This document shows, one piece after another, positions 33,001 to 39,000 of a stretch of 39,038 nucleotides of DNA. This stretch comes from a virus. Taxonomy: Duplodnaviria; Heunggongvirae; Uroviricota; Caudoviricetes. The DNA is taken from IMG/VR virus record IMGVR_UViG_2721755725_000014; one strand, written 5' to 3'. Position numbers: made by a program. How positions within the stretch are numbered: position 1 is the stretch's first letter; each line of letters starts with the position of its first letter.

Positions 33001-36000
33001 AATATTTTAAGTTGCAAGTTGGCTATTCGTAGGAATAGAACCTTAGGCATGCTGAATGCGTTTTCTGAACATTGTTTTATAAACTGTGTCTGCTTGCTGT
33101 TGTGATCCTGCTTTTAGTGATGGTGATGATGGATTTCACCAGCAGGATAATGTTGGTACTGACTGATGGCGCTCTGGTCTGCGGCATTGTGGTATTGCTG
33201 TGGCCGATGATGAAAGAACAGAATGAATAATTCTTGACTTTTTTGTTTACTGTTTATTAAAAAATCAACCGCATGGTGAATCCTCCTTGGAGGGGCTAAA
33301 TGATCGAGTTTTAAGGGCACGTAGCGAGTTCTGTTTGATCATTGCAGAACTTAGCGGGAGGCGCCATGCGTACATCACTAGTGTTATTCCTTTTATCATT
33401 TTCCTTGTGAGTTCTGGCTGCGCATTGCGCAGCCTTTTTTTTATGACCTGCCACTGGCAGATGGTCATCCTGTGATTTGATTCCGCTTCCGGCTTTTTAA
33501 CTCTGTTCCTCTACACGGGAGAAATTCGATGTCGATTAAACATTACGATGTTGTCAGGGCGGCGTCGCCGTCAGACCTTGCGGAAAAGCTGACACACAAA
33601 CTGAAAGAGGGCTGGCAGCCATACGGCGGACCGGTTGCCATTACGCCGTACACACTGATGCAGGCGGTGGCTATTGAAGGAGAGCCACAGGTCGGCCCTT
33701 CATCTGAGCCGGATTGGTACTACGTCATCGTACTGGCCGGGCAATCCAATGCCATGGCTTACGGTGAAGGGCTTCCGCTGCCGGATTCATACGATGCTCC
33801 GGATCCGCGCATTAAACAGCTGGCGCGCCGCAGTACAGTGACGCCGGGCGGGGCTGCCTGCAGATATAACGATATTATTCCGGCTGACCACTGTCTGCAT
33901 GATGTGCAGGATATGAGTACGCTGAATCATCCGAGGGCTGACCTGAGCAAAGGGCAGTACGGCTGTGTCGGCCAGGGTTTACATATTGCCAAAAAACTGC
34001 TCCCGTATATCCCGAATAACGCGGGGATCCTGCTGGTACCATGCTGTCGTGGTGGTTCGGCATTTACCCAGGGCGCGGAGGGGACATTCAGCGAGTCCAC
34101 GGGGGCCAGTCAGGATTCGGCACGCTGGGGGGTGGGCAAGCCGTTATATCAGGATCTGATTTCCCGCACAAAAGCGGCATTGCAGAAAAATCCCAAAAAC
34201 GTTCTGCTGGCCGTCTGCTGGATGCAGGGTGAGTTTGACATGAGCGCCGCCACCCACGTACAGCAACCTGCGCTGTTTACAGCCATGCTGACACAGTTTC
34301 GTGCTGACCTCTCCGTGTTTAACGCGCAGTGCCATGGTGGCAGTGCTGCAGATGTGCCGTGGGTTTGTGGTGACACGACGTATTACTGGAAAAATACATA
34401 CGCTACCCAGTACGACACCGTGTACGGCGGGTATAAAAACAGGGAGAGTGAGGGCGTTTATTTTGTGCCCTTCATGACAGACGGTAACGGCGTCAATACC
34501 GCCACTAACGCGCCGGCAGAAGATCCGGATATTCCGGCATCAGGATATTACGGTGCGGCATCGAGAACGAATGGAAACCAGGTATCATCAAACCGCCCGA
34601 CACATTTCAGTTCATGGGCGCGCAGGAGCATTATTCCGGATCGTCTGGCAACCGCTATTCTGAACGCAGCCGGGCGCACCTCAGCCTTCATCAGTGGTAA
34701 GGCACCGGAAATCAAACCCTCGCCCGGCGGCAACACGCCATCGGGTCCGTCTGCAGATACGTCCGTTCGCACAATCTCCCTGCTGCCGGCAGCCGGAGAG
34801 GCTGCTGCGCAGGGCTGGAGCATTAAGGATGGCGGAATTCAGTTGTCAGATGGTGTATTTAAGATCACCAAGCAGAGCAATAAAACCTGGTCCCTGACGC
34901 ATCCGGTGGATGACGCAATTACCCTGCTGACACAGGGCGGCAGACAGACCTGTAAGTTCCGCCTGTCAGGCGCACTGACCAACAATCAGTTCGGGCTGGG
35001 GATTTATCTGTATACGGATGCTCCCGTTCCTGATGGTGTGGCGATGACGGGTACCGGTAATCCGTTCCTGATGTCGTACTTCACTCAGACCACTGACGGC
35101 AGAGTGAATCTGATGCATCACAGGAAAGCCGGAAACACGAAGCTGGGGGAGTTCGGCGATTACGGTAACGACTGGCAGACGCTGGAGCTGGTGTTCACCG
35201 CCGGCAGTGCCACGGTTACTCCGAAACTGAATGGAGTGGCTGGCCCGGCATTCCAGGTTATAAAAGACAGTCTGACACTGGGACTGAATGCGCTGACGCT
35301 GACGGATGTTACAAAAAATGCAGCGTATGGCGTTGAGATAGAAAGTCTGATGCTGGAGATAAATGCACCGGCAGCATAATAAAAAAAGCCAGCGACTGAC
35401 CTGAAAAAGAAGACGCTGGCTAAAAGGCCTTATATGTTTGTAGAGACTTATTTTTCACAGACAGCAATGATGCCTGTCAATATATTATCAATATGCGGAT
35501 TGTTTCAGTTACAGATGCCTTATTAAGGAAAAAAACAGCCAGCACTGACTTTCGGTGGAGAGGTGCTGGCTCAAAAGGATAGATGTACTTCACATGTTGC
35601 TTCTATATGGCAGTACATTTTCTGACAGACAGTGACGGATGTTGTCAAGATATTGTGTCATTTATAACCTGAATCAGGGGAGGCCGGAATGTTATCTGGC
35701 ATTTTTAGCAGAGCCTGAATGCCATAATCACGGCTCCCGGCGTTGGCCGTCAGTGGGTGACACTGGCGGCTTTTTTGTTTTTCTTTACTTTCATTTTCTG
35801 TCGGCGGTGACGGAGACATACATCAGATGGAAAAAATCACAACAGGTGTGTCATACACCACGTCAGCGGTGGGGACGGGATACTGGTTACTGCAGCTGCT
35901 GGACAAAGTCTCTCCGTCCCAGTGGGTGGCAATAGGTGTGCTGGGAAGTCTGCTGTTTGGCCTGCTGACGTATCTGACAAATCTTTATTTCAAGATTAAA

Positions 36001-39000
36001 GAAGATAAGCGTAAGGCTGCGAAAGGTGAATAATGTCGCCGTCATTACGCAAGGCTGTTGCAGCTGCTATTGGTGGTGGGGCTGTTGCCATAGCGTCTGT
36101 GCTCATCACTGGTCCAGGTGGTAACGATGGTCTGGAAGGTGTCAGCTACATACCATACAAAGATATCGTTGGCGTATGGACTGTATGTCACGGACACACC
36201 GGAAAAGACATCATGCCCGGTAAAACGTATACCGAAGCAGAATGCAAAGCCCTCCTGAATAAAGACCTTGCCACGGTCGCCAGACAAATTAACCCGTACA
36301 TCAACGTCGATATACCGGAAACAACGCGCGGCGCTCTTTACTCGTTCGTTTACAACGTGGGCGCTGGCAATTTCAGAACATCGACGCTTCTTCGCAAAAT
36401 AAACCAGGGCGATATCAAAGGCGCATGTGATCAGCTACGGCGCTGGACATACGCTGGCGGTAAGCAATGGAAAGGGCTGATGACTCGCCGCGAGATTGAG
36501 CGTGAAGTCTGTTTGTGGGGGCAACAATGAGCAGGGTAACTGGATGTGGTGCTGGACGAGGCGAAGTCATGAGCGCCGGGATTTACCCCCTAATCTTTAT
36601 ATAAGAAACAATGGATATTACTGCTACAGGGACCCAAGGACGGGTAAAGAGTTTGGATTAGGCCGAGACAGGAGGATAGCAATCACTGAAGCAATACAGG
36701 CCAACATTGAGTTATTTTCAGGACACAAACACAAGCCTCTGACAGCGAGAATCAACAGTGATAATTCTGTTACGTTACATTCATGGCTTGATCGCTACGA
36801 AAAAATCCTCGCCAGCAGAGGAATCAAGCAGAAGACTCTCATAAATTACATGAGCAAAATTAAAGCAATAAGGAGGGGGCTGCCTGATGCTCCACTTGAA
36901 GACATCACCACAAAAGAAATTGCGGCAATGCTCAGTGGATACATAGACGAGGGCAAGGCGGCGTCAGCCAAGTTAATCAGATCAACACTGAGCGATGCAT
37001 TCCGAGAGGCAATAGCTGAAGGCCATATAACAACAAACCCGGTCGCTGCCACTCGCGCAGCAAAATCAGAGGTAAGGAGATCAAGACTTACGGCTGACGA
37101 ATACCTGAAAATTTATCAAGCAGCAGAATCATCACCATGTTGGCTAAGACTTGCAATGGAGCTGGCTGTTGTTACCGGGCAGCGAGTTGGTGATTTATGC
37201 GAAATGAAGTGGTCTGATATCGTAGATGGATATCTTTATGTCGAGCAAAGCAAAACAGGCGTAAAAATTGCCATCCCTACAACATTGCATGTTGATGCTC
37301 TCGGGATATCAATGAAGGAAACACTTGATAAATGCAAAGAGATTCTTGGCGGAGAAACCATAATTGCATCTACTCATCGTGAACCGCTTTCATCCGGCAC
37401 AGTATCAAGGTATTTTATGCGCGCACGAAAAGCATCAGGTCTTTCCTTCGAAGGGGATCCGCCGACCTTTCACGAGTTGCGCAGTTTGTCTGCAAGACTC
37501 TATGAGAAGCAGATAAGCGATAAGTTTGCTCAACATCTTCTCGGGCATAAGTCGGACACCATGGCATCACAGTATCGTGATGACAGAGGCAGGGAGTGGG
37601 ACAAAATTGAAATCAAATAATGATTTTATTTTGACTGATAGTGACCTGTTCGTTGCAACAAATTGATAAGCAATGCTTTTTTATAATGCCAACTTAGTAT
37701 AAAAAAGCAGGCTTCAACGGATTCATTTTTCTATTTCATAGCCCGGAGCAACCTGTGAACACATTTTCAGTTTCCCGTCTGGCGCTGGCATTGGCTTTTG
37801 GCGTGACGCTGACCGCCTGTAGCTCAACCCCGCCCGATCAACGTCCTTCTGATCAAACCGCGCCTGGTACCTCTTCTCGCCCGATTCTGTCGGCAAAAGA
37901 AGCGCAGAATTTCGATGCTCAACACTATTTTGCATCCCTGACACCAGGTGCAGCAGCGTGGAATCCTTCCCCGATTACCCTGCCTGCGCAACCTGACTTT
38001 GTTGTCGGCCCGGCGGGCACTCAAGGTGTAACGCATACCACGATTCAGGCGGCGGTAGATGCGGCAATTATCAAGCGTACCAACAAGCGCCAGTATATTG
38101 CCGTGATGCCTGGTGAGTATCAGGGAACGGTATATGTCCCTGCCGCTCCGGGTGGAATTACTCTGTACGGTACAGGTGAAAAACCGATTGATGTGAAGAT
38201 TGGGCTTTCCCTTGATGGTGGCATGAGCCCTGCCGACTGGCGTCACGACGTCAACCCGCGCGGCAAATATATGCCAGGTAAACCAGCGTGGTATATGTAC
38301 GATAGCTGCCAGAGCAAACGCAGCGACAGTATCGGTGTTCTCTGCTCTGCGGTCTTCTGGTCACAAAACAATGGCCTGCAACTGCAAAATCTGACCATCG
38401 AAAACACGCTGGGCGATAGCGTAGATGCAGGTAACCATCCGGCGGTGGCACTGCGTACTGATGGTGACCAGGTACAGATTAACAACGTTAACATTCTCGG
38501 TCGTCAGAACACCTTCTTTGTCACCAACAGCGGTGTGCAGAACCGTCTGGAAACGAATCGTCAGCCGCGTACGCTGGTGAGCAACAGCTACATTGAAGGG
38601 GATGTGGATATCGTTTCTGGTCGCGGCGCAGTGGTGTTCGATAACACCGAATTCCGCGTGGTGAACTCACGTACTCAGCAAGAAGCGTATGTGTTTGCAC
38701 CGGCTACGCTGTCCAACATTTACTACGGTTTCCTCGCCGTAAACAGCCGTTTCAATGCTTTCGGTGATGGTGTGGCGCAACTGGGCCGCTCGCTGGATGT
38801 TGATGCCAATACCAACGGTCAGGTGGTGATCCGTGATAGCGCCATCAACGAAGGTTTTAACACGGCTAAACCGTGGGCCGATGCGGTGATCTCTAATCGT
38901 CCGTTTGCGGGTAATACCGGCAGCGTAGATGATAACGACGAAATACAGCGCAATCTGAATGACACTAACTACAACCGCATGTGGGAATACAATAACCGCG

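Follow-up and report, generated by a model that had tools for sequence, protein, structure and literature searches.

A holin-endolysin pair followed directly by a chimeric int gene in a defective 434-like prophage of Escherichia coli O111

Several lambdoid elements carry a lysis cassette of the type considered here. In the late region of phage 434 (OL657226), a Q82-like Q gene, a SASA esterase, a pinholin, a SAR endolysin and an i-spanin/o-spanin pair are found in that order; R is followed by Rz with an embedded Rz1, bor and cos, while int lies on the opposite strand. In the Stx2-converting phage 1717, a complete 145-aa Rz-like spanin follows R. The defective lambdoid prophage DLP12 of E. coli K-12 (essD, rrrD, rzpD/rzoD) still has a phage-21-type holin and a SAR endolysin and, unlike the prophage described below, has kept its spanin genes rzpD/rzoD. 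The experimental prototype is the S21/R21 pair of phage 21, which is accompanied by Rz/Rz1 (PMC6139136). The mechanism of pinholin/SAR endolysin lysis includes a requirement for spanins, in whose absence spherical cells are formed; in shaken flasks, spanins are not needed as long as no divalent cations are supplied (PMC6139136).

The stretch of DNA analysed (39,038 nt, IMG/VR record IMGVR_UViG_2721755725_000014; hereafter the window) corresponds, judging from its sequence, to one complete but defective lambdoid prophage whose nearest relative is phage 434. In the enterohaemorrhagic E. coli O111 lineage, it is inserted between ybhB and ybhC, at the attachment site of lambda. Both att cores are intact, and window positions 568-773, beside the attR core, align with the phage 434 attP arm.

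37694..37708, minus strand: attL core GCTTTTTTATACTAA, adjoining ybhC; exact match (0 expected by chance), aligning to the phage 434 attP O core
568..582, minus strand: attR core, adjoining ybhB; exact match

The int gene and att core were 99.6% identical to those of phage 434. Compared with the 434 layout, however, the late block of the window is inverted, only 14 nt of Rz remain and int is missing its first 9 nt. Literature searches returned no description specific to this prophage or to its R|int joint. Its spanin-less lysis cassette is a case of ordinary prophage decay, assembled from known parts, and its significance outside annotation is small; it provides an example, at nucleotide resolution, of spanin loss by a lambdoid prophage of EHEC O111.

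The holin and endolysin genes

The two lysis genes overlap by the sequence TAATG.

35827..36033, plus strand: S, class II (pinholin-type) holin of 68 aa (PF04971), with a lone start codon and the stop codon within these coordinates
36033..36530, plus strand: R, SAR endolysin of 165 aa (PF00959), a T4-lysozyme-like muramidase with an N-terminal signal-anchor-release segment

A previous reading of the sequence alone had likened the 68-aa S protein to the phage 21 pinholin and had assigned a SAR segment to R, and both assignments held. S matched 63 of the 64 positions in the profile of Pfam family PF04971 ('Bacteriophage P21 holin S') with an E value of 1.2e-32 (112 bits, with a cut-off of 26), and showed 73.5% identity to the phage 21 holin across 68/68 residues, the complete genome of this phage (OL657228) having been located via tblastn. 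Identity rose to 67/68 residues with S of phage 434 and, equally, with the 68-aa form of S from Stx2 phage 1717. The first transmembrane domain (residues 8 to 26) is weakly hydrophobic, with a mean hydropathy of 0.55 and 42% G/A/S/T, whereas the second (residues 33 to 55) is strongly hydrophobic (1.59); the C-terminal tail is basic. A topology with two transmembrane domains and a cytoplasmic C-tail is thus predicted. No dual-start motif encoding holin and antiholin forms was present in S, which has one ATG preceded in frame by ATA CAT CAG. Viable phage 434 shares this single start, whereas S of Stx2 phage 1717 carries a MYQM dual start and the dual start of phage 21 S yields an antiholin form. 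The motif is a functional modulator and does not define the family of class II holins.

For its part, R matched PF00959 with an E value of 8e-46, and its residues 1 to 165 matched the solved structures of the phage 21 endolysin (3HDE, 4e-107) and of DLP12 RrrD (4ZPU), both with E values of about 1e-107; 3HDF was also matched over the full length. The top match in the structural database was RrrD, from which R differs slightly in the N-terminal region (residues 2, 18 and 29 in the alignment). The catalytic triad Glu-8aa-Asp-5aa-Thr is present as E35, D44 and T50. The protein begins with a basic MSPSLRK stretch followed by a Gly/Ala-rich segment (65% G/A/S/T), which would act as an uncleaved signal-anchor-release segment. 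R was identical to the endolysin of Stx2 phage 1717 (165/165) and nearly so to R of phage 434 (163/165). The two proteins therefore belong to the same Pfam families as S21 and R21, with the catalytic E-D-T residues and the SAR segment conserved, and the pair is intact at the protein level.

The R|int joint and the missing spanin genes

The annotated start of int (position 36544) lies only 13 nt past the R stop codon. The features of the joint are as follows.

36527..36540, plus strand: Rz vestige (first 14 nt of the i-spanin gene), ATGAGCAGGGTAAC, identical to the Rz start of phage 434 and Stx2 phage 1717
36541..36558, no strand assigned: filler of 18 nt, TGGATGTGGTGCTGGACG, at the joint of the rearrangement; no match to the sequence context of Rz or of xis/int
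36544..37620, plus strand: int, tyrosine integrase of the lambda/434 type with a chimeric 5' end (PF09003 and PF00589; 358-aa CDS in the PGAP annotation)

Homology to Rz stops past position 36540. Up to that point, from the S start through Rz nucleotide 14, the window differs from Stx2 phage 1717 by 1 nt in 714 nt, but where phage 1717 continues with its spanin gene, only the 14-nt vestige remains here. Homology to 434 int begins at position 36559, corresponding to int nucleotide 10, with 99.6% identity. The first 9 nt of native int have been lost and the replacement ATG is located in the filler, so the chimeric integrase starts with MWCWT instead of MGR. No template for the filler was detected, either as a further copy in the window (up to 3 mismatches) or in the compared parts of phage 434, the O145 prophage, IS1203 and phage 1717 (up to 4 mismatches), and its exact matches in IMG/VR were only copies of the same R|int joint or chance hits.

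The joint is genuine and has been inherited. Of 5426 complete E. coli genomes, 39 that were assembled independently carry it, and every carrier with a recorded serotype is O111; it is also present in 2 IMG/VR contigs. Since the identical joint recurs in complete genomes from different laboratories and in these contigs, the chance that the adjacency of R and int is an assembly artefact is negligible.

The absence of Rz/Rz1 and the abutment of R and int, as proposed earlier, were confirmed. When the 39-kb window was searched by tblastn, neither Rz (E values of 1.2 or above) nor Rz1 (1.1 or above) of phage 434 gave a match, and the whole window also lacked matches to bor (tblastn) and to the DNA between Rz and cos (blastn) of the same phage. 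Neither the i-spanin nor the o-spanin gene of a two-component system is thus present in the window. An unannotated small open reading frame overlapping R or int might nevertheless encode a spanin, given that o-spanin genes frequently escape annotation (196 were not identified in a survey; PMC6139136), and a chimeric 25-codon frame at 36527-36604 does start with MSRVTGC, superficially resembling a lipobox. This frame, lacking a hydrophobic signal core, was discounted. With all nested starts considered in six frames over 35400-37750, a scan that covers lipobox-type proteins, no credible frame (0) combined a hydrophobic signal with a lipobox Cys, and the possible existence of an Rz1-like gene embedded in R or int, raised by the sequence-only reading, found no support there. 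As for unimolecular spanins of the T1 gp11 type, no lipobox frame with a hydrophobic signal was found near S or R, and none was found among the PGAP annotations of the prophage. Together with tblastn E values above 1 throughout the window, these results make a hidden spanin extremely unlikely. It is also very improbable that the ancestral phage never had spanins beside R, even if there is precedent for such a layout, a survey of 677 phages with Gram-negative hosts having detected no spanin in 91 of them (PMC6139136). Against a native spanin-less arrangement, the first 14 nt of Rz are kept and overlap the R stop codon as in phages 434 and 1717, after which homology breaks abruptly, and Rz follows the same S-R alleles in phage 434, Stx2 phage 1717, the O145 strain RM9872 and another prophage of these same O111 genomes. 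Thus, while the genes are missing as claimed, the explanation is a rearrangement scar, with an Rz vestige and a truncated int, and the lack of spanins is not a matter of design.

Were the cassette transcribed, the pinholin would accumulate in the inner membrane and then trigger, forming small depolarising holes; the SAR segment of membrane-tethered R would exit the bilayer, and R would refold and degrade the murein. Without spanins, the outer membrane would be neither fused nor ruptured. Cells would turn round, and bursting would be expected only under shear, at low divalent cation concentrations or with spanins supplied by another prophage.

Inversion and a probable IS-associated deletion

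Two further features bear on the origin of the joint.

29708..36540, plus strand: 434-colinear block comprising the Q' fragment, lpxR, ylcG, Q, a membrane protein gene, TciB, SASA esterase, S, R and Rz nucleotides 1 to 14
25303..26611, minus strand: IS1203/IS629-like copy at the other joint, frameshifted (PGAP), flanked by the truncated portal gene on one side and the ren/nin genes on the other

The colinear block (6.8 kb) was 99.2 to 99.6% identical to phage 434 coordinates 39644-46467. With phage 434 and the O145 prophage at the same site as references, the block ren-nin-Q-S-R is inverted relative to int and the head/tail genes. Thus, the plus-strand late block and the minus-strand int of phage 434 both map onto the plus strand of the window, and in the comparison with the O145 prophage of RM9872, int maps in one orientation together with the portal/head genes, and Q-S-R in the other. 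The IS copy, which adjoins the ren/nin genes, was 98.9% identical to a second copy at 1866-3175 but, unlike the latter, showed no target-site duplication. The early region, terminase, cos and the remainder of Rz/Rz1 are gone from the prophage.

These data are consistent with the following course of events. The ancestral late lysis operon would have had the order Q, pR', esterase, S, R, Rz/Rz1. Illegitimate recombination, with one breakpoint slightly within int and the other slightly within Rz, would have inverted the segment between them and so put R, Rz nucleotides 1 to 14 and the 18-nt filler ahead of int, which starts at its nucleotide 10. A later deletion at the IS1203-like element would have removed the reciprocal joint, which bore the rest of Rz/Rz1, and taken with it the early region, terminase, cos and the 5' part of the portal gene. 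A synthetic query for that reciprocal joint, in which xis and int nucleotides 1 to 9 were fused to Rz from nucleotide 15, found both halves together in 0 of 5426 complete E. coli genomes; the order of inversion and then deletion is accordingly inferred and not observed. We consider it highly probable (roughly 85%) that the locus is a decayed 434-like prophage in which an inversion created the R|int joint and an IS-associated deletion removed the spanins, S and R being left intact and Q without a driver. The prophage would thereby illustrate a route of spanin loss through an illegitimate inversion joint followed by IS-associated deletion.

Regulation and distribution of the cassette

31369..32058, plus strand: Q, intact Q82-like late-gene antiterminator (PF06323), identical to phage 434 Q
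32042..32135, plus strand: candidate for the late promoter pR' (TTGCAA-17-TATACT), with the first terminator (stem at 32104-32125 and a T run), from a consensus scan
35745..35781, plus strand: intrinsic terminator 45 nt upstream of S (11-bp stem plus T run); a terminator is annotated at the same place in phage 434

The lysis cassette had been regarded as uncoupled from any intact Q gene, a view that has to be abandoned. A full-length Q is located 3.8 kb upstream of the cassette, identical to that of phage 434 in 229/229 residues (100%) and matching PF06323 with an E value of 1e-91 over 216 of 220 profile positions, and the 434-like leader continues through to S. The interval between Q and S contains no insertion, and its layout is that of viable phage 434. 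At 29718-29789 there is also a short Q fragment, which is easily misread; phage 434 has it natively, and it is no sign of a broken Q. The putative pR' matches the consensus at 9 of 12 positions and is identical to the phage 434 sequence, and the first terminator corresponds in position to the one annotated right after Q in that phage. The Q-dependent structure of the late operon, with Q, a promoter-like site, terminators and lysis genes in one unit, thus appears to have been retained, the promoter being a candidate. For S and R to be transcribed, the prophage's own Q would have to carry polymerase through at least three terminators.

The real regulatory break lies one level above Q. No xis, P, repressor or terminase gene was present in the PGAP annotation of the prophage, and in the 434/lambda layout N, cI, cro, pR and O lie between xis and P, that is, in the interval lost from the window. 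The early switch for Q (pR, N, cI/cro) thus appears to be missing, and with the early promoter and regulators lost, Q has no obvious driver. Although Q itself is intact, the S-R cassette is therefore most likely silent. Upstream of Q there may be a weak promoter, with the lpxR-ylcG spacer as one candidate site and read-out from the IS as another source. That an identical Q encoded by another prophage acts in trans is unlikely, because the Q/pR' allele occurred at one place only in every listed genome with the R|int joint. The same O111 genomes carry a second, complete S-R-Rz set, whose R protein is identical; the prophage that holds it has a different antiterminator.

The preservation of S and R raises the question of whether the host has domesticated the pair, with or without int, for its own benefit, such as controlled murein damage or the release of vesicles or toxin. 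Both genes are intact and near-identical to the versions of viable phages, and a single transcript could span S, R and int, since the interval from R to int yielded no terminator on the plus strand. However, R was uninterrupted in only 12 of the 39 complete genomes with the joint, the others (about two-thirds) carrying IS1203 inside R, and the locus has been rearranged further in strain RM9131. These observations, the complete second set and the lack of an evident driver of Q make domestication quite improbable. The more specific proposal of a new Q-dependent S-R-int unit, in which the spanin-less pair would be co-transcribed with the MWCWT integrase and might be kept by R-intact O111 strains for non-explosive envelope damage or release of benefit to the host, is highly doubtful. 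For studies of prophage lysis or Stx release in O111, the copy in the window is probably silent; it is redundant, given the complete second set, and in most genomes it is inactivated by IS1203 as well.

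Lysis genes and the missing spanins

The lysis genes lay at 35827-36530, exactly as the sequence-only reading had described, as adjacent plus-strand ORFs sharing the overlap TAATG:

35827-36033, plus strand: S, pinholin-type holin ORF, 68 aa
36033-36530, plus strand: R, SAR endolysin ORF, 165 aa
36527-36540: Rz vestige, the first 14 nt of this spanin gene, ATGAGCAGGGTAAC, where homology to phages 434 and 1717 ends
36541-36558: 18-nt filler, TGGATGTGGTGCTGGACG, between the Rz vestige and the int homology

S matched the Pfam profile PF04971, 'Bacteriophage P21 holin S' (E 1.2e-32, 63/64 profile positions), and tblastn gave 73.5% identity to the phage 21 holin (OL657228) across all 68 residues. 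Its sequence shows what is expected of a pinholin: residues 8-26 form a weakly hydrophobic, Gly/Ala/Ser/Thr-rich first segment (mean hydropathy 0.55), residues 33-55 form a second segment of strong hydrophobicity (mean hydropathy 1.59), and the C-terminal tail is basic. For its part, R matched PF00959 (E 8e-46), aligned over 165/165 residues with 3HDE and 4ZPU, the solved structures of phage 21 endolysin and DLP12 RrrD, respectively (E about 1e-107), carries Glu35, Asp44 and Thr50, and begins with MSPSLRK followed by a Gly/Ala-rich 20-residue stretch of the signal-anchor-release type. Both assignments, of S as pinholin-like and of R as having a signal-anchor-release N terminus, were therefore borne out. 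R does not differ from the Stx2 phage 1717 endolysin (165/165), and the S proteins of phages 434 and 1717 differ from the window S solely at R66K; therefore, S and R are intact, as in viable phages. Only one start codon is available to S, preceded by ATA CAT CAG (window 35818-35829), as in phage 434, whereas S of phage 1717 has a dual start, MYQM, that would give an antiholin form.

Phages 434 and 1717 have an Rz gene whose start codon overlaps the stop codon of R and within which Rz1 is embedded. In the window, Rz stops after its 14th nucleotide and R abuts int, in agreement with the earlier claim that Rz/Rz1 are absent. No match in the window was obtained by tblastn with Rz, Rz1 and bor of phage 434 (E values of at least 0.19, and above 1 for Rz and Rz1) or by blastn with 434 DNA from Rz nucleotide 15 to cos. 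A spanin-like ORF overlapping R or int had been named as evidence against this absence; none was found, nor was any ORF there with a credible lipoprotein signal. Judged from these comparisons, the absence of spanins is a rearrangement scar and not a spanin-less design.

Rearrangement of a prophage related to phage 434

Across this region the window was 100% identical to E. coli O111:H8 and O111:H- chromosomes, and it covers a single entire prophage integrated at the lambda attachment site:

1-477: ybhB, host flank
568-582 and 37694-37708: exact copies of the 15-bp att core, GCTTTTTTATACTAA
25303-26611: frameshifted IS1203/IS629-like copy, at the other end of the ren-nin-Q-S-R block
37755 to window end: ybhC, host flank

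The closest phage is 434. Identity was 99.6% for int plus the att core, and window 29708-36540 was colinear with 434 positions 39644-46467 at 99.2-99.6% identity, in the order short Q-like fragment, lpxR (opposite strand), ylcG, Q82-like Q, membrane protein, TciB (DUF3927), SASA-family esterase, S and R. In phage 434, int and Q-S-R-Rz occupy opposite strands; the window has both of them on its plus strand. The prophage of O145 strain RM9872, at the same site, has the canonical order (ybhC, int, xis, IS, ren, nin genes, Q, S, R, Rz, terminase, portal). Alignment of this locus with the window placed int and the portal/head genes in one orientation but Q-S-R in the opposite one, so the ren-nin-Q-S-R block is inverted in place.

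The IS copy at 25303-26611 sits between a truncated portal gene and a ren-like ORF and shows no target-site duplication, in contrast to the copy at 1866-3175, which has ATC on both sides; the former marks the deletion joint. The window is devoid of terminase, cos, the rest of Rz/Rz1, xis and P, and the N/cI/cro/O interval of phage 434 and lambda is also gone. The simplest account would be a two-step process, in an order that we infer: an illegitimate inversion that broke between int nucleotides 9 and 10 and between Rz nucleotides 14 and 15, and then an IS-associated deletion that would have removed the reciprocal joint and its surroundings. The predicted reciprocal joint was found in 0 of 5426 complete E. 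coli genomes. The parts are known proteins, with 98-100% identity to annotated phage counterparts, and the loss of the spanins is the outcome of an ordinary, lineage-specific prophage rearrangement.

Homology to 434 int starts at 36559, corresponding to int nucleotide 10, and the native ATG plus two further codons are missing. The ATG of the filler (36544) now opens the integrase frame, from which PGAP calls a 358-aa CDS, and MWCWT (36544-36560) replaces the native MGR. No template for the filler was found in the window, the searched parts of 434, the O145 prophage or IS1203. With xis and the pI promoter lost, the prophage should be unable to excise, and read-through from R would be the only way to transcribe int. 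A late transcript, if made, would extend into the chimeric int, as no plus-strand terminator was detected between R and int.

At the attR end, the type III secretion effector genes espJ (981-1634, plus strand), cif (about 5360-6190, minus strand) and nleH (6414-7295, minus strand) adjoin the IS1203 copy at 1866-3175. A frameshift that splits the minor tail protein L gene (14763-15460, minus strand) adds to the evidence that this prophage is unable to form particles.

Q and expected action of the cassette

The region upstream of S contains the following features:

31369-32058: Q, 229 aa, PF06323 (E 1e-91, nearly the whole profile)
32042-32070: promoter-like site, directly after Q
32104-32125: terminator, directly after Q
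33416-33434, plus strand: terminator
35745-35771, plus strand: terminator, just upstream of S

Q was identical to that of phage 434 (229/229). Thus, the sequence-only reading held for the absence of spanins, but its statement that no intact Q remains coupled to the cassette is not supported. The three terminators match positions annotated as such in 434, and no interrupting insertion was found in the 3.8-kb Q-to-S interval. At 29718-30892, ahead of the real Q, lie a lambda-Q-like N-terminal fragment (29718-29789) and then lpxR, encoding a lipid A deacylase, on the opposite strand. Viable phage 434 and the O145 prophage have the same layout, and the fragment was ruled out as a sign of a broken Q because it belongs to the normal 434 arrangement. 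The window lacks all that would switch Q on: the early promoter, N and the repressor region. Among the matches listed, the Q/pR' allele occurred at one place only in each genome carrying the R|int joint, making a second copy that supplies Q in trans unlikely. From this gene content, we infer that the cassette is normally silent.

In the phage 21 paradigm, the N-terminal segment of the exported SAR endolysin holds the enzyme in the inner membrane in an inactive state; pinholin builds up until it triggers, forming small holes that depolarise the membrane, whereupon the SAR segment exits the bilayer and the refolded enzyme degrades murein (PMC6139136). Spanin knock-outs yield fragile spherical cells with an intact outer membrane, which break on shaking unless millimolar divalent cations are added (PMC6139136). 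If expressed, S-R would follow this paradigm and, on its own, would be expected to produce fragile spherical cells, broken by shaking unless millimolar divalent cations are present.

Distribution of the joint in O111 genomes

Of 5426 complete genomes, 39 contained the joint (R, the 14 nt of Rz and the filler fused to int); every recorded serotype among the matches listed was O111. R was uninterrupted in 12 of the 39, the rarer form carried by the window, while in about 27 IS1203 lies inside R and splits the endolysin gene (e.g., locus L005 of strain SD134209, 1634-3444). Strain RM9131 showed a further IS-IS inversion and deletion at the prophage locus (L019, 12493-26326). These O111 genomes also harbor a second prophage (L022 of SD134209, 4.96 Mb, 6001-7168) in which an antiterminator of another kind and an Ile/Arg/Arg tRNA cluster precede a nearly identical S, an R encoding the same protein, and an intact Rz; it is a possible source of spanins in trans. 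The IS1203 insertions in R, the RM9131 rearrangement and the second S-R-Rz set argue that the S-R copy of the window is neither maintained by selection nor endowed with a special role. At the RM9131 locus, the 3' part of R is still beside int, a segment comprising nin-Q-S plus the 5' part of R has been flipped between IS copies, and every head and tail gene has been deleted.
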